The notes below the pieces were generated by a model. That model was not told where the DNA came from. It saw nothing but the letters and a program-made list of their open reading frames with translations, and made no database searches. Below are positions 564 to 16,144 of a stretch of DNA of 16,144 nucleotides, piece by piece (position 1 is the stretch's first letter; the number at the start of each line of letters is the position of its first letter). The translations under genes and the position numbers were made by a program. Source of the DNA: a virus; the UHGV virus genome UHGV-0251712; one strand, written 5' to 3'.

Positions 564-1043
564 TTAAGCCCGTTTGAAATCCGGGTATACCGCCATAACC
601 GCATTGTGCATGGTACTCGGGTCGCGCTGGCATTCCTGCTCACTTTTCTCATTATCCGCCTGTTTACTATCCCGGAAAGCACCTTCCTGCAAGAGGCTAT
701 TAAAGAACTGATACCAGGGTTTAGCAAAATCATCACCGACTACACGAGCTACCGCCACCGCATACTGACCACCTGAAATTTCTGTCAAAATGACGCCCTC
801 ACTGTTTTCGGGAAGCGTAAAGTAACCCGGCACCGTCACGACGGTGTCGCAGCGTAATTTTTCGGCGGGTGTTTCATCTGGATTGTCGTAATAGACAGCA
901 ACCCACTCCTTCGGCACAATATTTTTGCTATCTACCCACATCATCAACTGCTCAAAGCCTTTCTTTACCGTCTGTTCCCACGGGCCAACGAGATGGAAAC
1001 CTGCAACGGTACGTTTCTCTTCCTGCTTAATCTCGTAGTTCAT
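564..1043 (-). CDS. sbmC: DNA gyrase inhibitor SbmC/GyrI (GyrI-like domain protein)
   Basis: Translation begins [71 protein letters not shown], which I recognise as E. coli SbmC. Position next to dacD matches the K-12 order, and a LexA box sits just upstream. The C-terminal ~40 residues were not verified. Confidence 0.8.
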
Positions 1044-1161: not shown

Positions 1162-2334
1162 TCAGGCCTTATGGTGGAAATAATCACTCAGGCGAGAAAA
1201 CATGCTGCCTTCCCCGACAGATTCCAGGGTAACCAGCGGCCAGTGCGCCACCTGTTTATCACGGTCGTAAAGTTCAATTTCCCCTACCCGCTGATGGGCG
1301 CTAATTGGCGCGGTGAGTTCTTTACCATCAAGGGTATATTTGGCTTTGATATGTGGAATTTCGGCTTTCGGTAGCACCATCCAGAACTCTTGTTCCGTTC
1401 CCAGGGCGATATTTTCTTTATCGCCATACCAGATGCGTTCCGTACCGACCTTTTTCCCACGGTGCAAAATTTGCACCGTAGTAAAGTTTTGTTGCCCCCA
1501 ACGCAGTAATTTTCTTGCCTCTTCCTCACGACCTTTTGCGCTGTCAGCACCCATTACCACTGCAATGAGACGACGCTGCCCATCTACAGCCGAAGCAATG
1601 AGATTAAACCCGGCACCAGAAGTATGACCCGTTTTCAGGCCGTCAACATTCATGGTTTTATCCCACAATAACCCGTTACGGTTTTGCTGGGTGATACCGT
1701 TCCAGGTGAGGCTTTTCTCACTGTACATATGATAAAACTCGGGCTCGCCGTGGATGATAGCACGAGAAAGCACAGCTAAATCATAAGCCGAGCTATGCTG
1801 GCCAGGTGCATCCAGACCATACACTGTTTCAAAATGCGTATCCTTGAGATGCAGCTTCTCGGCATAGTTGTTCATCATTTCAACAAACTGCCGTTGCCCA
1901 CCGGCAATATAGTCAGCCAGAGCAACACAAGCGTCATTTCCGGAATCCACAATTAAACCACGGCTTAAATCACGTACCGATACGCGATCGCCCTCTTTCA
2001 AAAACATCAGTGAAGAACCGACAAACACCGGATTATCTTTCGCCCACGCATCGCGCCCCACGGTGACAATATCGTCTGGCGTAATGCGATGACTATCGAT
2101 AGCGCGATCCACGACATAACCCGTCATCAGCTTTGTCAGGCTGGCGGGATTGCGCTGTTGATGCTCATTACCCGCGGTGAGGATCTGTCCGGTGGTGTAA
2201 TCCATCAGTACCCAGGACCCGGCATGAATCTCTGGAGGCTGAGGTGAAAAATGAATGTTTTCCGCCGCAAAACCAGACGATAAGTTAAAAACGAACAAAG
2301 AAGCAGCAATAATAAGACGGCGTTTCAACAGCAA
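1162..2334 (-). CDS. dacD: D-alanyl-D-alanine carboxypeptidase / penicillin-binding protein 6b (DacD)
   Basis: 390-aa ORF with signal-peptide-like N-terminus, SxxK motif (ASLTK), SGN and KTG motifs of class C low-molecular-weight PBPs; closely matches my recollection of E. coli DacD; adjacent to sbmC. Confidence 0.9.
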   Translation of the reverse strand: MLLKRRLIIAASLFVFNLSSGFAAENIHFSPQPPEIHAGSWVLMDYTTGQILTAGNEHQQRNPASLTKLMTGYVVDRAIDSHRITPDDIVTVGRDAWAKDNPVFVGSSLMFLKEGDRVSVRDLSRGLIVDSGNDACVALADYIAGGQRQFVEMMNNYAEKLHLKDTHFETVYGLDAPGQHSSAYDLAVLSRAIIHGEPEFYHMYSEKSLTWNGITQQNRNGLLWDKTMNVDGLKTGHTSGAGFNLIASAVDGQRRLIAVVMGADSAKGREEEARKLLRWGQQNFTTVQILHRGKKVGTERIWYGDKENIALGTEQEFWMVLPKAEIPHIKAKYTLDGKELTAPISAHQRVGEIELYDRDKQVAHWPLVTLESVGEGSMFSRLSDYFHHKA

Positions 2335-2536
2335 ACCCTCAGGAGTTTCAAATAGCTGTTCTTTTTACGGAAATACTTATGAACTGGCTGGAATAAAGTG
2401 CAAGAAAATGTGACTACCCTCGCATTTTTATCTGACATGATCTGTTGCCACTCGCTGTCAAATTGTTGCGCTAAAGCTGATTAGCACGGTGATATTTGAT
2501 ACTCTGGCAGACAGCAGAAATAACGGATTTAACCTA

Positions 2537-2584
2537 ATGATGAATGACGGTAAGCAACAATCTACCTTTTTGTTTCACGATTAC
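2537..2584 (+). pseudogene. sbcB: 5' fragment of sbcB (exonuclease I): first 16 codons only
   Basis: Translation MMNDGKQQSTFLFHDY matches the N-terminus of E. coli exonuclease I as I recall it (continues ETFGTHPALD in the intact protein). Here it continues AQHP and stops. Divergent orientation from dacD matches K-12. Confidence 0.6.
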
Positions 2585-3205
2585 GCGCAACACCCCTGAG
2601 AACCGCCATGAACAAGGGTTTCATGATTTGTGATTTTAGTTTGGTACGCAATTTGGTACACAACACAATTTTCACTTCAGCGGGTAGTCATCAAACTCAC
2701 CATAACGAGCATCGTTAATGATGTATGTGATCACCACAAACATCACATCTGGACTAGTTCCGCTTTCATGCGCAGGTATTTGTTCACGCCTCCCTTTCTG
2801 CAAATCATAAAGATGAGATTTTGGGGTTTTGGGATATCTTTTATCCGCAGTTCTCTATCCATTATGCAAACCAGTAATGAACCATCACCGTGTGATAGTG
2901 AGGCATCTGCCACGATAAGCGCAGAGAAATGATGCAGTGGTGGGCGGACTGGATTGATGAGAAGGTGGAGTGAACCACCTTAACCACTATCGAAGAGCAC
3001 AAAGCCTTGCAATCCAGTACAAAACTTTGTTTGTCTCATCAACTACCGCAAGTATCGATCGATGGAGCCTTGGATGATAGAATAAATTCGTAGCACTTTT
3101 TTTTAAAGTATCATCTCGCTCATGGTTACGTGATAGAAAAAGGACAAAATAATCTTAAATTTAAAAGCATATAAATCATACAAATAAAATTGTGGTGGGT
3201 GCGTA

Positions 3206-4204
3206 ATGTCTGATATTCGACAAAATAGAATAGAGTTAAATGAAGTGCATATAGCTCGCTCCATGGCTATATTTCTAGTTGTTTTACTTCATTCTTCAGG
3301 TGCTTTTTTTATGCAGTTTGGAGATCATTGGTGGATTGTTAATTTATACAGTTCTTTTTCAAGGCAGTGTATAGGTCTTTTTTTTCTTATCACTGGATAC
3401 CTATTTTATGAAAAAAACATAAACCCAACAGCACACCTAAAAAAAGGAGTGTCGAGATTGATAATACCATTCATATTTTGGTGGGTGGTATATTATATCT
3501 ACAATACAGAGATTAACAACAAATCATATAATTCTATATTTCAACCAAGTGAGGTACACCTTTGGTTTATGTATGCATATATTTGTATATATATGTTTTT
3601 ACCAATAATTTGCAACTCATTAAAACACATACCAACATATTACATTTTAATTATTGTAAGCATGCTTTTTTACTCAAATTCCATTGTCCCTGTAGTTGAT
3701 AAAACGATAATGAAGGTAACATGGTTTGATGTAAAACTAGTGTCTGAAAATGGGATATATATTCTTATTGGGGCAATAATAAGGAGATATAACGATAAAA
3801 TAAAAAAATGCAATGCAGTGATACCATTGGTGATTATTGTTATGTCGTGCCTGTTAACATCAATGGCATCTAGTTGGTGGTCTGAAATAACAGGCAGGCC
3901 TGAGCAGTTTTTCTTTAAAAATACATCTCCACTTGTATTAATATGTGTTATTTCTTCATTTACATTATGCATGTCATACTCAAAAATAATTAGCAAAAGA
4001 TTAATGAATTTATTTACATCAATATCAAATGTTTCATTTGGTATATACTTCGTCCATTTCTTTTTTGTTAGAGAAATTAGACTCGGGTATAATCAAGAAA
4101 ACGCATATTTCATGATACCATTGCTAACAATCATTTATTTTTTAATGTCATATTGCATATCAATAATTCTAAGCAAGATCCCTTTGCTTAGAAAAGTAAT
4201 ATAA
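3206..4204 (+). CDS. Acyltransferase family 3 integral membrane protein, probable phage-encoded O-antigen O-acetyltransferase (Oac-like)
   Basis: 332 aa, highly hydrophobic with many predicted transmembrane segments. N-terminal pattern R-x-E-L-N...A-R-S-M-A-I-F-L-V-V-L-L-H resembles the acyltransferase-3 signature. Strongly AT-rich relative to neighbours. Convergent with and abutting the tailspike gene, as in Sf6-like phages. Confidence 0.7.
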   Translation: MSDIRQNRIELNEVHIARSMAIFLVVLLHSSGAFFMQFGDHWWIVNLYSSFSRQCIGLFFLITGYLFYEKNINPTAHLKKGVSRLIIPFIFWWVVYYIYNTEINNKSYNSIFQPSEVHLWFMYAYICIYMFLPIICNSLKHIPTYYILIIVSMLFYSNSIVPVVDKTIMKVTWFDVKLVSENGIYILIGAIIRRYNDKIKKCNAVIPLVIIVMSCLLTSMASSWWSEITGRPEQFFFKNTSPLVLICVISSFTLCMSYSKIISKRLMNLFTSISNVSFGIYFVHFFFVREIRLGYNQENAYFMIPLLTIIYFLMSYCISIILSKIPLLRKVI

Positions 4205-6451
4205 TTATGGATTGTTAACCTTCCATCTTTTATCATAGTAATGCAAATATCCCTGAGACGTTAGTGTCATATGGACAATCGCTTGGGATATTTGCGCGTT
4301 CTGAAAATTAACTCTAATAAATACTTGAGTGCCAATTGTTATTTTTGATACAGATATCCCGTCAAGAGTCTTGTCTCCTTGTATTTTATTAACCCAAACA
4401 CCTGACGAAGACAAGGTTGCCTGATCCTTTCCGCTTATACTAAATATAATTTTACCTCCTGTTGCCAGTGAGGTGTTTACTCCATTTTGAGATATTGGAA
4501 TTATTGTAATTTCACCAGCAATGAAAACACCATTTTTGTATTTAGATACCTCACCTTGTTCACAAATTAAAATATCAATACATCTACCCCATGGTACTAG
4601 GATTGTTGCATTTTCAGTTTTTACTTGTGGATATACAGCTGAAACACCTGCAGATTCGAAATTTTTTGCTGATAAAACAACTCCGTCAGATCCATTTCTA
4701 AATCCCATTCCTGTATGATCACCGTATGTCCTTCCATGAGAGATGAATCCTCTTACATACTCTTCGGATACTGCGCTACCAGTGGTTTCCTTCTGAAAGA
4801 TAAATGTTTCACCAAAAGAAAAACCACGACATTGGTATTGGCTCTGATAATTTTCTGAGTTCTTAAAAAAGGAAATGCCTTTATATGCTGTTACATAGCC
4901 AGATCTAAATTGAACGGAAACAGGGGTTGTTTGTTCATCTGGAGGTAACTCCACAAAATGTGTAACATTTTGGCTGTTTGATTCCTGTAACCATACAGAA
5001 ACACCATCTATAATCATGGTTGAAAATCTACTGTTTATTTCTAACTCAGAAAAATCAAGAACATGATCACCTGTAACACCCTCAACTCCAAACCCATCAA
5101 TACTTAAAGACCTGAACTGATAGAATTTATGCGGTAACTCACAACCATCAGCTGCAATATTCATTGCGCTAGTGTACATTAATGGGTAAGGACTTATAAT
5201 TGGTTCATATGTTTCTCTATCTATTGCAGCCCCCCAAAGATACCCAACATTACAATGTCTTGCCCAGTTGGAAGAGAATGTAGTAGATGTGCCAGCCAAA
5301 CCGAAACCATAGATACAATCATATGCTTGGTTGTTTGTAACATTACTGACAAAGCATGATAAGGGAAGTGCAAATTTATAATGTAGAAATATGTTATTTT
5401 TAATATCATATTCACTACCCCCGCCAAAGGTTTGTGTTTGACCAGAAATGGCCAATGGGCTACCTGAATATTCATCGTCAGCGTTGCGAAAACACATATT
5501 CTTTACTTTAAGATTGTGCCCCCAACTTCCCATAACAAAACCACCACTTCCTGATGTATAAACAATACTTTTTTGTGGATTAATCCCATATAGATTTAGA
5601 CTAATCCCTTCCCATCTAAACTGGCTAATGTCAATTTGAGTGTTACCAATATATATAGGCTGGTCTATGAAAACAGGAAGTTTAGTTAGATAAGCTTTAT
5701 TAAGTGCTAATCCATCATTTGTTACACCTGTTAAATCAACGCCCCCCATGCTTGGCGCTCTAGGATACCCTGTGGCCTGAATAGTACTCCAGTCAATATA
5801 TGGAGCATCCATCCACGCTCCAAACATACGTGGTGTTACGTACCCCTTACCTTGAAGATCACGTTTCCAGCGTTTACCACCCACAGTGACAATGACCATG
5901 CCGTTATCATCTGCAGAAGTAGAATCTGTGAAATCGGCCACAAACAGACCACCACCAGTATCACCTGATACTGTCGGCTTCATGCCTGTAGTGTGGAAGT
6001 CGACGAAAATCTTTTGCTGATCTCGCTCAGGCTCAATTGTCCTTAACATTGCTATATCAGGGCATGTCCCGATGTATTTAAGACCGTCTTCCCCTGATAG
6101 AGATACTTTAAGCTGATCAGGATCATATTTAAGAACATTCGGAAAATAGAACTGCTGTGCACCATATGCATCATAAACAGCCATAGAATGGCCTTGCACA
6201 GTTACGAACTTGGCAATCTGTCCGTTATATACCGGATATCCAGCAGCGTTAATGATGATTGGTTGCGAAACAGGAACGCGAGAACCGTCTTCATTCTCCA
6301 CATAAACCTGAATCTGGTTTTCAGGATTTACCGGGTCAGTGTCAATTTTACCGATATAAATTTTGCCATTGGCTACGGCTTTAAAAGAACGAGCCATAGT
6401 GAAGAGTTGCGAAGGCATGCTTACCACAACATTTGCGGTGATATCTGACAT
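4205..6451 (-). CDS. P22-like tailspike protein (gene 9 homologue) with conserved head-binding N-terminal domain and divergent receptor-binding domain
   Basis: From the internal Met, [43 protein letters not shown]...VLKYDPDQ aligns with the P22 tailspike N-terminal domain ([43 protein letters not shown]). A GGAG ribosome-binding site sits 7 nt upstream of the ATG at 6449-6451. The ORF-track start at 6499 is probably an upstream extension. Confidence 0.85.
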
Positions 6452-6572
6452 TTCATTGCTCCAGACGAATGATATGATGCAACCATGATGTGATTGCATA
6501 CCGAAATGGTACTATTGAGTATTTATCCAGTAGGTTACGATGCCATTCCACCCAACTGGTGAGGCATCAAGG

Positions 6573-6922: not shown

Positions 6923-9316
6923 CTATTCTGACAACGCATCAGACTTGGCACCCTGAGTAAGGGCGTTAATGGCCTTTTGCGCCTGCTGCATGGCTTTCTC
7001 AAACGCTGTTGATCCGCGTGGGGTGTTTGCCATTCGGAGCATTGCATTTCTGAATGGCTCGCTCTCATAGGCGCGAGTAAGAAGTCCGTAGCTTACTGCT
7101 GCGCCAGTTGTCGCCGGGTTCATTGCCGTCCCATATCCGATAATGAACGGGATGGTTTGCTGCCCTGTTGGTGTTGTTACTGCCGCTTTTGCTGCCTGCT
7201 GAGTGGACTGAAGGTAGTTTTTCAATCCTTTCAGATAAGCGGCTTCCTGACCTTTAAATGTGATGCCAGTCTGGTTTTGCAGGATGTTAAGCTGTCGAAG
7301 GAACTGGTCAGGTGAACCACCTGATTTCTCTATCGCCTTTCCAATAATGCCATTGCGCATTTGCGCTCTTCCAACGCGACCAACTGAGTTATACAGCGTC
7401 TTAATTTCCGATTTGTTCTTGCTGAATAGCATGTTGTTGACAACTTCCGGCGTCAGGTCGCCTTTCATGAGAACATTCTTCAGCCTGGTATTCTTTAGTT
7501 TCGCCGCTTCGTCAGCGTATACGGCATTGGCCTGCTGATATTTACGGAGAGTATCGTTGCCAAGATTCTGACCAATGGCACCATTGATATCGTCTGTCAT
7601 CGCCTTGTAAACGCGCTGAATGGCAGCATCGGAACGGTTTGGTAACACTGGTCGTTCACCCTTCACGTCCATTCTGAACTGGCTGCGCAGATCGCTTAAT
7701 TGCTTCAAATCCAGATTTACCGGACCATCAGGACCAGCATTGCGAACAAGCTCATCACGATATGACTGAAGTTTTGAAATAGTCTCGTTATCAGCAACCT
7801 TACCAAGCTTCTGCAGGTTAGATATTTCTGTATCAATCTGCTGAATTGCTCGCGCAGGCTGAATGTTTACTCCAGCCATAGCATTCTGAACCTGCTCCAG
7901 TCGATTACCGGCGGCACGACGAATTCCTGATGTTTTCGCTTTAAGGCTGTCAATAACAACAGATGGATCATACTCACCGAATTTATCAGCAAATCTCTGC
8001 ACCAACTGGCTTCTCGCTTCCTGTTGCGTTGCTCTCATTCCGCTTGTGCCAGCCAGAGGAATATTTTCTGCTGTAGTCTGCGCCATTTTTCCGACGCGGG
8101 AAGTAGGCTGTAACAGGTCTGTGGTGTGCAGAGGAACTCCTTCACGCTCTGCAAATCTGATAGCTTGCTGTGCTTCTGGCGCGATAGCACCACGAACGCC
8201 ACGATAAGCAGCACCTAATCCACGTCCGGCAGCGTTAATAGCACCGCCAGCAAGTACACCAACGCCTAAATCGGTGGCGAGTGCTTCCGCATCATCTTTC
8301 GCACTATTTGCAGCAAGTGATCCAACTGCGTTTTCTGCTAGAAGGCGAGTTGCCCCCTGAGCAATTCGACCAGCAAGTGTTGGTGCCTGTGCTGCCGCTC
8401 TCTCAACGCCAGCAGGAGTGAGGTAAGGCAATGCTTCAGCAAATACCCTTCCCTCTGTCGTTTGTGGAGTCAGCGCGCCTTGCCGAAGGCCAAAGTCCCG
8501 CTCTAATCCCTGCGTTGTTACTCGTGGTGCTGGTTGATATGTACCATCGCCAATGCCGAGTTTACCGCCAGCCCAAGCCGCCGCGCTTGTTACAGCATCA
8601 GTGAGTTCAGCAGGTATGTTCGCTACGTTGATTCCTGCCTGTAGTATGCCGCGCCCGGTTTCAGCAAGTCCATTACCAAGGTCAGACATTATTCCGCCTT
8701 GCTGCTGAACAGGTTTCGGTGCGACAGAACTTACGGGTTGAGGTGGCTGCTGACTGGCTGCCTGCTGCTCAATCTGAGCAAATGGATTATTTGGGTCTGA
8801 CTGCACACCTGATGCCGATACTTGTTCGGATGACTGTACTTCCAGTTGTGCAAACGGGTTGTTAGGGTCTTGCTGAGGATGTACCTTTGCAGAGGTGGCG
8901 CGCTGTTCGACTGTTGAGTCTGTCACCGGGTCACCCGCCCATTGAGCAAAGCGATCATCAACGTAACCGCGGCCTTCAGGTCCTGGCGTATATTCACCAC
9001 GCTTTGCCTTCATAACGTTGCCGGGACCGTCGTGATAAGCCTGAAGAGCGTCACGCCAGTTACCAAACTGCTGGTACATCTTTGCCAGATAGCGCGCGCC
9101 AGCGTCAGCCTGATATTCGGGGTTTTGCATTTGCTCATCGGTATAACCCATATCACGCCATGTCCCAGGCATGACCTGAGTCAATCCTACAGCCCCGGCG
9201 GAGCTTACTGCGGCAGGGTTGTAAGAAGACTCCTTGGCACCCAGTGCAGTCATCAACCCTTCTGGCACACCGTAACGTGCGCCAGCCTGCTCTAACAAAT
9301 CACGGTAATTAGCCAT
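6923..9316 (-). CDS. Phage ejection/injection (internal virion) protein with N-terminal lytic transglycosylase-like domain
   Basis: 797 aa. N-terminus (GVPEGLMTALGAKESSYNPAAVSSAGAVGLTQVMPGTW) resembles the SLT-domain catalytic region (E-S...GLMQ pattern). Start ATG immediately follows the stop of the upstream 443-aa gene. Sits between the ejection genes and the mnt/tailspike region, like P22 gene 16. Confidence 0.65.
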   Translation of the reverse strand: MANYRDLLEQAGARYGVPEGLMTALGAKESSYNPAAVSSAGAVGLTQVMPGTWRDMGYTDEQMQNPEYQADAGARYLAKMYQQFGNWRDALQAYHDGPGNVMKAKRGEYTPGPEGRGYVDDRFAQWAGDPVTDSTVEQRATSAKVHPQQDPNNPFAQLEVQSSEQVSASGVQSDPNNPFAQIEQQAASQQPPQPVSSVAPKPVQQQGGIMSDLGNGLAETGRGILQAGINVANIPAELTDAVTSAAAWAGGKLGIGDGTYQPAPRVTTQGLERDFGLRQGALTPQTTEGRVFAEALPYLTPAGVERAAAQAPTLAGRIAQGATRLLAENAVGSLAANSAKDDAEALATDLGVGVLAGGAINAAGRGLGAAYRGVRGAIAPEAQQAIRFAEREGVPLHTTDLLQPTSRVGKMAQTTAENIPLAGTSGMRATQQEARSQLVQRFADKFGEYDPSVVIDSLKAKTSGIRRAAGNRLEQVQNAMAGVNIQPARAIQQIDTEISNLQKLGKVADNETISKLQSYRDELVRNAGPDGPVNLDLKQLSDLRSQFRMDVKGERPVLPNRSDAAIQRVYKAMTDDINGAIGQNLGNDTLRKYQQANAVYADEAAKLKNTRLKNVLMKGDLTPEVVNNMLFSKNKSEIKTLYNSVGRVGRAQMRNGIIGKAIEKSGGSPDQFLRQLNILQNQTGITFKGQEAAYLKGLKNYLQSTQQAAKAAVTTPTGQQTIPFIIGYGTAMNPATTGAAVSYGLLTRAYESEPFRNAMLRMANTPRGSTAFEKAMQQAQKAINALTQGAKSDALSE

Positions 9317-10648
9317 TTACTGCCCCAAAGATGGAAGATATCCGTAGCGATTAATGAAGTCGATTGACAGCTCGGGGTGCTGCTTCAGGTAATCTATAGA
9401 AGCCTGAGGCGCTTCCACTCGCTTGATACCGTTTTGCTGAACGTACTTACCAACCGCCTCATTACGCTTCTGGTTGAGCGTGTTCAGGATGACGCCAGCG
9501 TTGCGACGAAAGGACTCCTCGCTCTGCGAGTTCTGCAGCGAACCAACAGCCTGGTCGAGCTTTTTGCCCTCGGCATCAGAAAGTGCGCCCATGCCTCGCA
9601 TGGCCTGAACCGCTGTCAGGTATGCTTGGGATTTAAAGGTATCAAGTCGTGCCTGAGTGTCTGCAGCCTGTGAGCCTGGAACGTTGGGGATTACTCCACG
9701 TAAGCCTGTAATGCTCTTAAGTGAAGGAGAACTAACGATATCGTTCAGAGTGAACATGCTGGTTGTGAGGGTGTTGATGCCGTCTTTGTAGCCATCATTT
9801 AGCGCTTGCTGCTTCTGCTGCAACTGCTGGTTGTTGGCTGCTATGCGGCTCTGTATTTCCTGGCGCTTCAGGTCGTTAGTTTCTGCTGATAGCATCCGGT
9901 CAAGGCGCTTATTTTCGTTGTTAATGCGGTTTGTTTCTGCGTCCAGATTAATGCGCTGCTGACCTAAATTCGCCTGGATATCTTGCCCGCGCATTGTGAT
10001 TGCCTGATTCCGAGCGGCGGTTTGCGAATCCAGATCCTGACCGCGCATGGTAACCTGGCGACCCTGCATTTTATCCTGTAGGTCAAAGTATTTTTCGGGT
10101 CCGAGACTGTTCATCCCCAGGTGATCGACAAATTCGCCGAACTGCCGCGGGTTCTGTTGGTACATCTGAGCGACATCCTGAGGATTAACGCCAACACGAG
10201 CTAACTCACCGGCGTTGTTTTGCAGCCATGATTGCATTGCTTCTGGAGACGATGACGCAAGGCGTGCGCCAGCCGCTAAGGTGCCGATAGAATTACGCTG
10301 ATCTTCATCAATGAATCCCATGCCTTTACGAACGGATTCAATCTGTTCTGGATATTGAGTAGCCAACTGACGCAAAGCACCGCGATCACCAGACGCATAA
10401 GCATTAGCGTATGCCTGCTGAAATTCTTTCTGCCGCTGAGCCTGCTTTTCCTGCTGAAACACCCCCGCAATACCTGAAAGGCCTTGCAAAGCAGTCAGCC
10501 CAACATTGTTAGCGCCTGAACGCTCAATATCATTGTTCTGCCTGATAAGCTGAAGCGTATTGCCGATGTCATTTACGCTCGGAGCGTTTGAGTTGACGCC
10601 GCCGATACCAGCCAACAATCCGCCGTTTGTTCCTTGCCAAGTAGCCAT
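9317..10648 (-). CDS. Phage ejection/DNA-transfer protein (P22 gene 20-like)
   Basis: 443 aa, Q/N/A-rich low-complexity with coiled-coil character; in operon with and immediately upstream of the 797-aa protein; size and context fit P22-like gp20. Family assignment is by context only. Confidence 0.55.
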   Translation of the reverse strand: MATWQGTNGGLLAGIGGVNSNAPSVNDIGNTLQLIRQNNDIERSGANNVGLTALQGLSGIAGVFQQEKQAQRQKEFQQAYANAYASGDRGALRQLATQYPEQIESVRKGMGFIDEDQRNSIGTLAAGARLASSSPEAMQSWLQNNAGELARVGVNPQDVAQMYQQNPRQFGEFVDHLGMNSLGPEKYFDLQDKMQGRQVTMRGQDLDSQTAARNQAITMRGQDIQANLGQQRINLDAETNRINNENKRLDRMLSAETNDLKRQEIQSRIAANNQQLQQKQQALNDGYKDGINTLTTSMFTLNDIVSSPSLKSITGLRGVIPNVPGSQAADTQARLDTFKSQAYLTAVQAMRGMGALSDAEGKKLDQAVGSLQNSQSEESFRRNAGVILNTLNQKRNEAVGKYVQQNGIKRVEAPQASIDYLKQHPELSIDFINRYGYLPSLGQ

Positions 10649-10657
10649 GATTACCCC

Positions 10658-10855
10658 TTAAAACAACGAGCCAAGCAATCCGATACCAGCACCAATGCCA
10701 GCGCCCCAAGGCGTTGATGTTCCCAAAAGGCTGGCAAGACCTGCACCGGCAATCGCACCAGACGTGCCACCGCTAATTGCAGTCTGAAGACTTGATGGTT
10801 TAACCAAAGAGTAGTTGGCTTTGGGGTGACGTGAAGTGCAGCTGCACGACGGCAA
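10658..10855 (-). CDS. Small Gly/Ala-rich ORF, possibly the 3' remnant of an upstream ejection-protein gene (gene 7-like) truncated by a deletion joint
   Basis: 65-aa ORF ending 9 bp before the 443-aa gene. Hydrophobic Gly/Ala-rich C-terminus. Begins at a TTG inside the region occupied on the other strand by the ssb fragment, so its 5' end is unlikely to be native. Confidence 0.3.
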
Positions 10856-11267
10856 CCTGACAATAGCAACGTCAGAACAATGGCGAGATAAAAATACTGG
10901 CGAGCAAAAGGAATTGACTGAATGGCATCGTGTTGCTGTATCCGGGAAACTGGCTGAGGTCGTGGGGCAGTATGTGAAAAAAGGTGATCAGATTTATTTC
11001 GAGGGAATGCTGAGAACCAGAAAGTGGAAAGACCAGTCAGGGCAAGACCGTTACACAACCGAGGTTCATGTCGGAATTAATGGCGTGATGCAAATGCTTG
11101 GCGGCATTGGCGACAGCAAACAACAAGCAGCCAGCAGGCAATCACAGAAGCCACAGCAGCAATCATCACCAGCACAACACAACGAACCTCCGATGGATTT
11201 TGACGACGATATACCCTTTGCACCAGTAACTCTCCCCTTCCCTCGTCACGCTATTCACGCAATTTAA
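10830..11267 (+). pseudogene. ssb: Single-stranded DNA-binding protein gene (ssb), 5'-truncated and with a C-terminal extension beyond the DDDIPF tip
   Basis: Translation [22 protein letters not shown]...[54 protein letters not shown]...[10 protein letters not shown] aligns with E. coli SSB from about residue 30 onward. The N-terminal ~30 residues are absent (in-frame stop at 10827-10829). After DDDIPF there is no stop and the frame continues 15 codons. Confidence 0.75.
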
Positions 11268-11280
11268 TCAGGAGAAAATC

Positions 11281-12052: not shown

Positions 12053-12742
12053 ATGAGCAAGATTGCCTATCAGGCACTGCGTGAAAAGGCAGAGAAAGCA
12101 ACGTGTGGTGTGTGGTCGCTCGAATATGGAGAGGGCCGATTTGATGGTGATGATGCGCTAATTCATCGTGAAGTTGCTGGATATATTCCCATTTGCAGAA
12201 TTGAAGGAGCGCATCCTGAAAGCGGTTTCGATGAAGATTTCCAAATGGAACAGCAGGCCAATGCTGAATTCATCGCAGCAGCCAGTCCAGCTACCGTGCT
12301 GGCACTACTGGATGAACGGGAAAGAAACCAGCAGTACATCAAACGCCGCGACCAGGAGAACGAAGATATTGCGCTAACGGTAGGGAAGCTGCGTGTTGAT
12401 CTGGAAGCCGCAGAGAAGCGCAACGCAAAATTACAAAGCGAGAATGCATACATCCGCAACAGGTACAAAGAACTGGACCTATTAATCGGGAAAAACATTC
12501 TGGTCATGCAGGCTGCCATTATCGAATGGCAATCTACTGGCGACGCTAAAAGCGGACTGGCATGGATTTATAACACACTGTTTGGCCCAGGCGAATTGCC
12601 GGACGAATCTGAGAAAGATGCTCAGGCCTACTTTAATCGCAAAAATGAACCGATTGACGAAAAGCTTATGGAGCTTCACAAGTGGTTTTGGGAACAAAGT
12701 GAAGCCGAGCGTGTCGCTGGCATTCGCATCAAAGGAGAGTGA
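12053..12742 (+). CDS. Ead/Ea22-like family protein (lambdoid early-left accessory protein)
   Basis: 229 aa with a central coiled-coil-like segment; N-terminus MSKIAYQALREKAEK... resembles proteins annotated Ead/Ea22-like in enterobacterial prophages (recollection, not searched); position in the early-left region. Confidence 0.5.
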   Translation: MSKIAYQALREKAEKATCGVWSLEYGEGRFDGDDALIHREVAGYIPICRIEGAHPESGFDEDFQMEQQANAEFIAAASPATVLALLDERERNQQYIKRRDQENEDIALTVGKLRVDLEAAEKRNAKLQSENAYIRNRYKELDLLIGKNILVMQAAIIEWQSTGDAKSGLAWIYNTLFGPGELPDESEKDAQAYFNRKNEPIDEKLMELHKWFWEQSEAERVAGIRIKGE

Positions 12743-13547: not shown

Positions 13548-14195
13548 ATGAATTGCAAATCAATGACCAGAAAATATGCCATCATGATCGATGCTGGTTT
13601 TTTGCGTGCAAAATTAGGCACAAAAGATAAGCCAATCGATGCGGAAGTAATCAAAGTATTTGTAGAAAAACTAACAAAAAGGCATGAACTAGAAGGCATG
13701 ATTTTGCACCGTGTTTATTATTACGATGCAGAGCCGCTTACCGGAATACAGACGCATCCGATTAGTGGAGAGAAAATTGACTTCTCTGAAACAGAAGTTT
13801 CTAAAAGAAATAAAGCCATGCTTGATGAGTTGAAAAGAACTCCTTTTTTTGCAGTAAGACTTGGAGAGACAAACTTTCGAGGATGGAAGGTTGACCCATG
13901 GGCATTAAAGAGCAGTGACTCTAAAACTTCTTCCATTAATGCCTACAATGTTAAGCCTAATGTTCAGCAGAAAGGCGTTGATATGCGTATTGCGTTAGAT
14001 ATGTCATCAATGTCATTAAAAAAACAGGCAGATATATATGCTTTGGTGACTGGTGATTCAGATTTTGTTCCAATTATAAAATTTGCTAGGAAAGAAGGCC
14101 GACAGATTTTTCTATACACACTGGGACATAGTGTCAAGCAGACGATGTATGAACATTCCGATTTGTTAGTGCCAGATACCATGGATAAATTGTGA
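13548..14195 (+). CDS. NYN-domain (PIN-like, LabA/limkain-b1-type) predicted ribonuclease
   Basis: 215 aa with NYN hallmarks: N-terminal YAIMIDAGF, central KGVDMRIALDM, and C-terminal ALVTGDSDFVPIIKFARKEGRQIF (the typical GDxDF...G block). AT-rich relative to flanking phage genes. True start may be the ATG at 13563. Confidence 0.65.
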   Translation: MNCKSMTRKYAIMIDAGFLRAKLGTKDKPIDAEVIKVFVEKLTKRHELEGMILHRVYYYDAEPLTGIQTHPISGEKIDFSETEVSKRNKAMLDELKRTPFFAVRLGETNFRGWKVDPWALKSSDSKTSSINAYNVKPNVQQKGVDMRIALDMSSMSLKKQADIYALVTGDSDFVPIIKFARKEGRQIFLYTLGHSVKQTMYEHSDLLVPDTMDKL

Positions 14196-14430: not shown

Positions 14431-14442
14431 ATGGAGATGATT

Positions 14443-14742
14443 ATGGCCTGTTCAACATTCAACCATTTAACGTTACAGAAATACCAGCCAGACCCTGAAG
14501 ATTTATGCTCACTGTGTGGCGGAAATCATGGTAAAGCCGCCATGATCGAATGTAAGGACAAAATCCACATTTGCCTTAATTGCGTTGATGTCCTCGTTGA
14601 TATCAAAAATGAGAGAGAAGATAAAAAGCGTAGCGAGGCTATTCGCGCATTAGATTCATGGATGCGAGATGGGTATAGTGCTGCGCAAATTTATGACTTC
14701 GCAATATCAAAAGGCGAAATACCAGGAGTGCGCATCGAATAA
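14443..14742 (+). CDS. Small zinc-ribbon protein bounded by terminators
   Basis: CSLCGG...C...CLNC cysteine pattern. Start chosen at the ATG at 14443 because GGAG lies 6 nt upstream; the ORF track starts at 14431, which abuts the terminator T-run. Confidence 0.45.
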   Translation: MACSTFNHLTLQKYQPDPEDLCSLCGGNHGKAAMIECKDKIHICLNCVDVLVDIKNEREDKKRSEAIRALDSWMRDGYSAAQIYDFAISKGEIPGVRIE

Positions 14743-14822: not shown

Positions 14823-14927
14823 GATGACCGATACCAGCCTGATTCCTGAGAAAGAAGTGATGAACAAGCTCGGTGTTTCATCACGTCAGACAATCTGGAA
14901 CTATACCAAACGGCACGGATGGATATA
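14823..14927 (+). pseudogene. AlpA/excisionase-family helix-turn-helix gene, 3'-truncated (34 codons)
   Basis: MTDTSLIPEKEVMNKLGVSSRQTIWNYTKRHG fits the AlpA/Xis-type HTH pattern (L-x-x-x-E-V...G-x-S-R-x-T-I-x). Intact members run about 60-70 aa. Here the frame ends WI-stop inside the 36-bp inverted-repeat copy that starts at 14917. Confidence 0.5.
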
Positions 14928-14952
14928 GGTTACTGGCGAACACATGATTTCA
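14917..14952. repeat. Left copy of perfect 36-bp inverted repeat bracketing the integrase 3' segment
   Basis: ggatggatataggttactggcgaacacatgatttca is exactly the reverse complement of 15154-15189, with mismatches immediately outside both ends. Confidence 0.9.
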
Positions 14953-15140
14953 GAAGAACGCTTGTTACACGTCTGTCCGAGATGAATGTCGAGCCTCATG
15001 TTACTGAGCGAATGCTCGGTCATGAACTTGGCGGGATAATGTCCGTATACAATAAACACGATTGGATAGAGGCTCAGCGCAAAGCGTATGAGCTTCACGC
15101 TGATAAATTGTTCTGGCACATCAGGAGCATTTCTGATTAA
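14919..15140 (+). pseudogene. Detached C-terminal segment of a tyrosine integrase, inverted relative to the rest of the gene
   Basis: MDIGYWRTHDFRRTLVTRLSEMNVEPHVTERMLGHELGGIMSVYNKHDWIEAQRKAYELHADKLFW carries the H-x-x-R and catalytic Tyr region. Its first 11 residues duplicate the last residues of the minus-strand integrase ORF. Confidence 0.8.
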
Positions 15141-15148
15141 CGCCACCG

Positions 15149-16144
15149 TTAAGTGAAATCATGTGTTCGCCAGTAACCTATATCCATCCCTCCCCTTATT
15201 CTATTTACGAATCGGTTGGCTGCAGCGATGCTGATCGGTTTGTTTATGTCTTCTCCAGGGAAAAGAACATCATTGTACGTTGTCATGGCCTTATCGAGGA
15301 AAGGCTTAATTTGTTCGAAGATTGGACGGCGGATAACATTACCCATCTTGCTATGCTCTTTCGGTACGGTCCATACGTTGTCCAGCAGGTCAAATTCTGT
15401 CTTTGTTGCCAGCCTAAGCTCTGAGAGCCTCGCCCCCCACAGCATAAGCATCTGATGAAGGAGCTTATTTGACGTAGACGCACGGCTTCTTTCAATAGCA
15501 AGCCAAATCTTAGCCAGTTCGTGATACGACAGTACCCGATCCCCTACCTCAGCGCGGGAGCCGAAGTCCCTTGGCTGGATGCTCATAATTGCGCAACTAT
15601 CTATCAACTGACGCCGCATGCACCAACTAATTGCTGATCTTAGTTGACTTAGCACCTGCCTTGCTCGGCGTGGATTATCTTTTTCTTCTTCGGTAAGCAG
15701 GTCAACCCATTGCTTAACCGTGATAGAAGATGCCGGACGATTAGGAAAGGCGTCATGCATGCGCTTCATAACCGTTGATCGGTAAAGTGCCTGGGTCTTT
15801 TCTCTGAGAGTTGTAGAGACGTAGTTGTCGAACCAGTAGTCGAGACACTGGGCGACCGTCATGGAGTTCTCCACCTTCTCTTCAAAATAAGTGCGTGGAT
15901 CCGTTCCTGAGAAATAGAGCTTTCGCAAGTCAGCAGTGATCTGTCTGGCATCCTTCAAAGACAGGGATGGGTATCGACCAAGCCCAAGTCGATTAGGCTT
16001 GCCATGCCAGCGATAGCGGTACTGGAACTGGATGACCCCCTTCGGTGAAATTCGTACGCTGAGGCCATCGGCATCAGCCACTTCTTGTGGGCCCGAATAT
16101 GGTTTACCATAAATAGTACGCAGTTTTGTGTCGCTTATAGCCAT
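15149..16144 (-). CDS. P4-type tyrosine integrase, N-terminal 330 codons; truncated before the catalytic Tyr
   Basis: N-terminus has the arm-binding pattern of P4-family integrases (GLSVRISPKGVIQFQYRYRWHGKPNRLGLGRYPSLSLKDAR). ORF ends ...GGMDIGYWRTHDFT-stop at the right copy of the 36-bp repeat. Start codon is the last 3 bases of the window. Confidence 0.8.
   Translation of the reverse strand: MAISDTKLRTIYGKPYSGPQEVADADGLSVRISPKGVIQFQYRYRWHGKPNRLGLGRYPSLSLKDARQITADLRKLYFSGTDPRTYFEEKVENSMTVAQCLDYWFDNYVSTTLREKTQALYRSTVMKRMHDAFPNRPASSITVKQWVDLLTEEEKDNPRRARQVLSQLRSAISWCMRRQLIDSCAIMSIQPRDFGSRAEVGDRVLSYHELAKIWLAIERSRASTSNKLLHQMLMLWGARLSELRLATKTEFDLLDNVWTVPKEHSKMGNVIRRPIFEQIKPFLDKAMTTYNDVLFPGEDINKPISIAAANRFVNRIRGGMDIGYWRTHDFT
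15154..15189. repeat. Right copy of perfect 36-bp inverted repeat
   Basis: Reverse complement identical to 14917-14952. Confidence 0.9.

Follow-up and report, generated by a model that had tools for sequence, protein, structure and literature searches.

The window analysed here, a stretch of 16,144 nucleotides from the virus genome UHGV-0251712, contains the host gene dacD and, divergent from it, the first codons of sbcB, the gene of exonuclease I (ExoI), which run directly into foreign DNA. This raises the question of what kind of event interrupted sbcB at this position and whether the interruption deprives the host of ExoI. The features of the left part of the window that bear on this question are the following.

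1162..2328, minus strand: dacD, host gene divergent from sbcB (Pfam Peptidase_S11, E 1e-103, and PBP5_C)
2329..2536, plus strand: native DNA between dacD and sbcB, carrying the promoter and leader that originally served sbcB, still joined to the stub (collinear with uninterrupted E. coli loci, 97–100% identity)
2537..2584, plus strand: sbcB codons 1–16 (MMNDGKQQSTFLFHDY), the 5′ stub left behind (translation; alignment to intact sbcB of E. coli 6A)
2573..2585, plus strand: 13-bp att core TTTCACGATTACG, crossover region (no other segment is the same in attB, attP and the two junctions)
2586..2677, plus strand: integrase-distal attP arm (collinear with the attP of Sf101, HK544 and HK140 directly past the core)
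2640..2651, plus strand: arm-type repeat copy 1 (tttggtacgcaa), putative site of the Int N-domain (TGGTACRC at +69 in every attP or junction examined)
2652..2663, plus strand: arm-type repeat copy 2 (tttggtacacaa), putative site of the Int N-domain (TGGTACRC at +81 in every attP or junction examined)
2678..2922, minus strand: decayed umuD/humD-like (S24 peptidase) pseudogene (tblastn with HumD of AST198: two frames, 52–56% identity, E 2e-15)
3206..4204, plus strand: AT-rich acyltransferase, lysogenic-conversion cargo adjoining attP (Pfam Acyl_transf_3 (PF01757), E 5e-34; GC 28–33%)

Positions 2340–3210 of the window were compared by megablast with 5,426 complete E. coli genomes, 5,420 of which matched. 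Approximately 5,400 of the complete genomes contain the segment 2340–2585, which comprises the dacD–sbcB intergenic region and the 5′ end of sbcB, at 97–100% identity, and where sbcB is uninterrupted, the match ends exactly at position 2585 (query 1–246, corresponding to window 2340–2585, under 'sbcB: exodeoxyribonuclease I'). The neighboring dacD is collinear with the annotated dacD of E. coli AST198 (L001 6771–7937). Translation of 2537–2599 gives MMNDGKQQSTFLFHDYAQHP followed by a stop codon, the phage DNA at 2585–2599 extending the frame of the stub as AQHP-stop. This is in agreement with the original prediction, made without database searches, which had recognized 2537–2584 as the start of sbcB in divergent orientation to dacD and AQHP-stop as foreign to the gene; alignment to a reference sbcB, which had been proposed as a check, placed the breakpoint at 2585 and upheld the sbcB origin of 2537–2584. 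The metal ligands of ExoI are D15, E17 and D186 (PMC3675492). The stub retains D15, has Ala in place of E17 and encodes nothing of the enzyme beyond this point. It is a dead fragment and a non-functional gene.

The transition from host to foreign DNA was defined in a four-way alignment of the window, the uninterrupted locus of E. coli 6A (L003), the attP of phage Sf101 (L002) and the int-side junction of AST198 (L001). In the window, the sequence is that of the host up to TTTCACGATTACG and that of the phage past it, the order is reversed in the int-side junction of AST198, and the flanks swap exactly at the 13-bp core. One flank of the window junction is collinear with attB and the other with one arm of attP, as would be expected if, as had been predicted, a prophage remnant is joined inside the 5′ end of sbcB. 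The match between the window and Sf101 starts at 2556. The core spans codons F13-H14-D15-Y16 and the first base of E17. The attP of Sf101 and of phage 2851, the latter taken from the account given in the Sf101 paper, has been published as CGTAATCGTGAAA (PMC4159516), and TTTCACGATTACG at 2573–2585 is its exact reverse complement. The same 13 bp are annotated as 'attP; prophage attachment site (type 2851)' in the GenBank records of HK544 and mEp234 and as an insertion duplication in the record of the Stx2 phage 1717, and they fall within the 'putative attP' feature of HK140. In the dacD-side copy of the core in AST198 (L001 8182–8194), there is a T-to-C change (TTTCACGACTACG).

We consider it highly likely that window 2537–2700 is the integrase-distal host–prophage junction generated through site-specific recombination by a 2851/Sf101-type tyrosine integrase. 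In the nomenclature of the Sf101 paper, the integrase-distal junction is attR and the int-side junction is attL (PMC4159516). The junction belongs to the 2851/Sf101 att system, which has been published, and as such is already known: 2851, 1717, Sf101, HK544, mEp234 and HK140 have an identical 13-bp core in common with the window, phages of type 2851 occupy the same host position at the 5′ end of sbcB adjoining dacD, and their attP contains the same distal arm with the tandem repeat. The predicted interruption of sbcB is therefore real, but it corresponds to the published, GenBank-annotated 'attP type 2851' site and not to a new kind of interruption. The locus is also one of the four standard Stx-prophage insertion loci that are used in the typing of E. 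coli O157:H7 (PMC8309913; PMC3519850). The partners of this recombination are the phage attP and the bacterial attB in sbcB codons 13–17, with the crossover located inside the 13-bp TTTCACGATTACG. Host DNA with the native sbcB promoter, leader and 16 codons is found to the left of the crossover, and the phage arm with two tandem TTTGGTACRCAA repeats, the umuD-like pseudogene and the O-antigen-type acyltransferase cargo gene lie to the right of it. Since the core is located on the catalytic motif HDYE of ExoI and covers the codons of the conserved metal-binding residues D15 and E17, we infer that the phage targets one of the least mutable parts of sbcB.

Other parts of the window are joined in an unusual manner. 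The left edge of the window cuts into an ORF (1–297; 57% GC) whose product corresponds to an internal part of a Bacteroidota-type conjugative-transposon TraG ATPase (TIGR03783 positions 170–231 of 829, E 1.8e-14). No counterpart of this segment was found in any of the 5,426 complete E. coli genomes. In metagenome data, at least 120 contigs contain a 35-mer taken from it, and many of these contigs are labelled as human gut. At 297/298, the TraG fragment abuts E. coli yeeA–sbmC intergenic DNA, and because of this abrupt join the window is probably a chimeric metagenome-type assembly. Relative to AST198, region 298–684 contains an inverted duplication, in which 298–461 corresponds to L001 6001–6164 in the forward direction and 463–684 corresponds to L001 6064 to 5843 in the reverse direction, including the 5′ end of yeeA, and the window is collinear again from L001 6286. 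The sbmC ORF (564–1043, minus strand) lacks its last ∼120 bp and has a foreign C-terminus, with the Pfam GyrI-like domain found on residues 1–121 only. At 14909–15153, the 3′ end of int and the region of the overlapping AlpA-like gene end are inverted, with a 44-bp inverted duplication and a 62-bp loss when compared with AST198 and Sf101. Neither the rearrangement junction in the integrase gene nor the 297/298 join was detected when species-representative genomes and metagenome contigs were scanned for the exact patterns. The inverted joins at ∼461–684, which removes the 3′ end of sbmC, and at 14909–15153, which removes the 3′ end of int, may be assembly artefacts.

The fusion of the TraG fragment to E. 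coli DNA and the two inverted-duplication joints could be taken to indicate that the sbcB junction is an assembly chimera of the same kind as the 297/298 join, with no biological counterpart. The probability of this is negligible, given that the 181-bp junction segment 2500–2680 was found in 570 of the 5,426 complete E. coli genomes (at least 80% coverage), that it is identical at 100% in many closed chromosomes and that its position agrees to the base with the published att core (PMC4159516). In the best 12 records of the 570, the identity is 100% over the full length of the segment. The presence of the same junction in closed genomes rules out both an assembly artefact and a chance resemblance at this position. 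The reciprocal int-side junction was found in 582 of the 5,426 genomes, and the sbcB site is occupied in approximately one in ten E. coli genomes.

With the integrase-distal junction accepted as a product of site-specific recombination, the consequence for the host depends on what lies at the other junction. It had been proposed that the insertion could inactivate sbcB or, alternatively, place the remainder of the gene at the far end of the element. The second proposal was borne out, as this remainder is located at the integrase end in every relative examined. Both AST198, which carries a remnant, and E2863, whose P22-like prophage is complete at 42 kb, have the arrangement dacD–stub–prophage–int–sbcB, and in both sbcB is annotated as an intact gene of 474 aa with its start 182 bp from the divergent int start. 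The int-proximal phage arm encodes ATG ACA GAC ACA GAT AAA CAA CCT ACC TTC CTC TTT CAC GAT TAC G (MTDTDKQPTFLFHDY), and in the relatives this start of 15 codons joins in frame to sbcB codon 17 at the core. Over 474 residues, the hybrid SbcB and native ExoI share 98% identity, with the differences located mostly in the first nine residues, and the RNase_T profile is covered from position 2, the same as in the native protein. In the phage-borne codons, TFLFHDY is kept through synonymous differences (TTT/TTC, TTG/CTC), which suggests selection to retain this product. Among the 582 genomes with the int-side junction, all 12 of the records listed have sbcB labelled by RefSeq as exodeoxyribonuclease I and non-pseudogene. 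In the relatives, the target ORF is not left incomplete at both junctions, as it would be upon insertional inactivation. Inactivation of sbcB by integration appears unlikely, because the phage arm supplies a substitute start that would give a 474-aa ExoI with a complete exonuclease domain; the proposed inactivation is not supported by the relatives, in which the phage start rebuilds this protein and the gene is annotated as intact. Integration would exchange the 5′ end and upstream region of sbcB without knocking it out.

The window ends at the int start codon (16144), and the far junction was seen in the relatives only. Since the window matches AST198 at 99% identity all the way to its final nucleotide, the rebuilt sbcB can be extrapolated from the relatives and very probably follows the right end of this window. 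The sequence expected past 16144 would consist of ∼182 bp (AAATAATATTTGGTACGCTC...GACA), followed by ATGACAGACACAGATAAACAACCTACCTTCCTCTTTCACGATTACGAAACC... and an open sbcB of 474 codons. The end of the window at the int start codon, ahead of any rebuilt gene, together with the decay of the element (the internal deletion, the rearranged 3′ end of the integrase gene and the umuD-like pseudogene), could be regarded as an indication that in this host integration or the later decay of the remnant truly inactivates sbcB, that expression is limited to the stub and that no functional ExoI is made. However, AST198, E2863 and the 12 of 12 records listed of the 582 have a full-length, in-frame sbcB annotated as intact, and with the window being so close to these relatives up to its last base, a loss of ExoI here is very improbable.

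A gene rebuilt by phage DNA is also found in icd, into which phage 21 and e14 integrate and where a diverged gene segment carried by the phage restores the ORF, with a dead fragment left at the other junction. The two cases are alike in that the displaced end of the gene is carried by the phage. In icd, the exchanged part is the 3′ end, whereas sbcB receives a new 5′ end, comprising a start codon and 15 codons as well as everything upstream of them. This replacement of the front of the gene is the less usual arrangement, and it means that the rebuilt sbcB depends on phage-derived signals for transcription and translation.

Beyond the core, there is a trace of similarity between the phage arm and the host gene. 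The distal arm (L002 5987–6040) weakly resembles sbcB codons 21–30 (L003 1747–1800) with a 12-bp gap after the core. The residual sbcB similarity downstream of the core has a z of 2.5 (51 of 2000 shuffles reach it), the similarity upstream of the core has a z of 2.2 (88 of 2000 shuffles), and there is none further upstream. This is a weak hint that attP may have descended from a captured 5′ segment of sbcB.

The integrase-distal arm contains the tandem repeat, whose copies were originally placed at 2640–2651 and 2653–2664. The first position is correct, but the second is off by one, as the copies abut and the second one occupies 2652–2663. Three further copies of TGGTACRC are located in the int-proximal arm at −204, −181 and −170 from the core. 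The offsets −204/−181/−170/+69/+81 are unchanged in seven independent loci, which include attP sites of phages and lysogen junctions of either type, and no other copies are present within 400 bp. In the 15.6 kb of Sf101, there are 6 TGGTACRC copies (0.59 expected; none of 200 shuffles reach 6), and five of the six, which share one strand, are located no more than ∼205 bp from the core. The known attP copies are all at least 94% identical, and the evidence for conservation of the repeats comes mainly from one diverged arm variant, that of AST198, in which the ∼50 bp separating the tandem pair from the core are almost wholly diverged, with the pair and its distance from the core unchanged. This ∼50-bp arm of AST198 is almost unrelated to the arm of Sf101 and HK544 and constitutes another arm variant within this att system.

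The N-terminal part of the integrase (residues 4–85) is an arm-DNA-binding domain (PF13356 Arm-DNA-bind_3, E 6e-18). Because the layout of the copies and the presence of this domain are as expected of a lambda-style intasome, all five TGGTACRC copies around the core (three towards int, two in the distal arm) are probably arm-type sites of Int. The N-terminal domain of Int would bind the five copies, assembling the intasome. The earlier suggestion that the tandem repeat might be an integrase arm-type site is thus made plausible by the five-copy layout, the fixed offsets and the PF13356 domain. The attP of lambda is composed of the core and five Int arm-type sites, P1, P2 and P′1–3, and therefore likewise combines its core with five copies of an unrelated motif, distributed 2 + 3 over the two arms with one set closely tandem; lambda Int likewise has a separate N-terminal arm-binding domain. 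The system described here differs from lambda in the sequence of the motif and in the single orientation of all copies of its putative sites, and the N-domain of its integrase belongs to PF13356 (P4-like) and not to PF09003 as in lambda.

The main rival to Int as the owner of the repeat sites is an AlpA-like excisionase. The tandem TTTGGTACRCAA repeat would then be not an arm-type element but a site for this excisionase or for a host bending protein, or it might be a functionless duplication. An AlpA-family gene overlaps the 3′ end of int in these phages, and lambda Xis binds the tandem direct repeats X1 and X2, which are located on one arm. However, Xis sites are confined to one arm, whereas here three more 8-mers of the same orientation are located on the other arm in a 3 + 2 arrangement that resembles the Int sites of lambda. 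A non-Int role is also disfavored by the dedicated arm-binding domain of the integrase and by the repeats, whose positions are invariant in all loci and which are kept within the diverged arm. On balance, such a role appears doubtful, and the assignment of the five copies to Int is preferred.

The DNA between the stub and the acyltransferase gene was described in the original prediction as ∼600 bp of non-coding sequence. This stretch of ∼620 bp is in fact made up of the attP arm and the umuD/humD-like pseudogene, and the AT-rich acyltransferase that was predicted to follow is confirmed by its match to PF01757. The pseudogene contains a frameshift near 2840, and its N-terminal third is unrecognizable. 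The Sf101 copy of this gene has an in-frame stop, and the versions of AST198 and HK140 at the same position are intact. The acyltransferase gene sits where Sf101 has an O-acetyltransferase gene (L002 6538–7710). At the nucleotide level, neither the acyltransferase gene nor the part encoding the C-terminal portion of the tailspike has a match in Sf101, and the window is without a match to Sf101 between 3037 and 6106. The remaining features of the element are the following.

4205–6499, minus strand: P22-type tailspike
6923–9316, minus strand: SLT-domain ejection protein
9317–10648, minus strand: gp20-like translocase
10651–11058: gp7-like ejection gene, shortened (135-aa ORF)
from ∼11278: early-left genes matching the Sf101 abc2 anti-RecBCD gene
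12053–12742: Ead/Ea22 gene
14966..16144, minus strand: 2851/Sf101-type tyrosine integrase (Sf101 Int match; Pfam Arm-DNA-bind_3 and a truncated Phage_integrase domain)

In comparison with the phages of type 2851, the element is a deleted remnant with an integrase that lacks its last ∼60 residues. At an internal deletion joint (10802–11278), the gp7-like gene is cut short and the early-left genes follow directly, and no head, lysis, replication or immunity genes were found in the element of the window. In AST198, a deletion at another point truncates the DNA-transfer protein and N genes. Because this deletion is independent and located at a different point, sbcB-site remnants seem to arise repeatedly. 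Two other genes of the window, encoding an NYN-domain protein (13548–14195, 215 aa) and a 103-aa ORF (14431–14742), have identical copies in many P22-like and lambdoid prophages with other integrases and other att sites, some of them beside a lambda-type Int/Exc pair near a pectinesterase gene and others at a LysR/GntP locus. Both belong to the early-left 'moron' genes, which are mobile and are shuffled between phages.

The element carries its cognate integrase, though in a C-terminally truncated form. The protein is identical to Sf101 Int over residues 1–330 save one substitution and diverges at RTHDF-RRT. Its ORF (15149–16144) ends early at 331 aa (RTHDF-T-stop), without the second catalytic Arg and beyond, because the terminal ∼245 bp at the 3′ end of the gene are inverted (14909–15153; blastn). 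The truncated integrase is probably inactive, and the remnant would very probably be unable to excise by itself. With the prophage being a deleted remnant with a truncated integrase, the sbcB junction is probably fixed.

Because the entire upstream region and the N-terminus of sbcB are replaced by the phage, it is conceivable that phage DNA sets the expression of ExoI in lysogens, and the orphaned native sbcB promoter could in turn aid expression of the acyltransferase. Both effects are a long shot, and neither is reported in the literature that we found. In the relatives, the rebuilt sbcB and int share the 182-bp divergent control region, which contains the three putative Int arm sites. A sigma-70 consensus scan of this phage-supplied region upstream of the rebuilt sbcB found no site; a scan of the native intergenic region 2329–2536 also found none, i.e. 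the scan misses the native sbcB promoter too. The orphaned native promoter is oriented towards the prophage and shares its strand with the acyltransferase gene, and terminator prediction returned none between the two. If ExoI expression were under such phage control, these phages, which encode recombination and anti-RecBCD functions as well, could tune a host nuclease that antagonizes recombination.

Relative to the published accounts that we found, the present analysis makes small additions, namely the 3 + 2 map of putative arm sites and the position of the core on the HDYE codons, both of which are expected for this class of integrase. None of these accounts spells out the rebuilding of sbcB, which is likewise a routine expectation. 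For annotation, it matters that a 16-codon sbcB fragment beside dacD marks an occupied 2851-type att site and not an ExoI knock-out, and that the working sbcB, with a phage-derived start, is to be sought past the integrase. Recognition of the sbcB junction also helps to place conversion and toxin phages, as the locus is both a Stx-prophage locus and the site of the Shigella serotype-converting phage Sf101.
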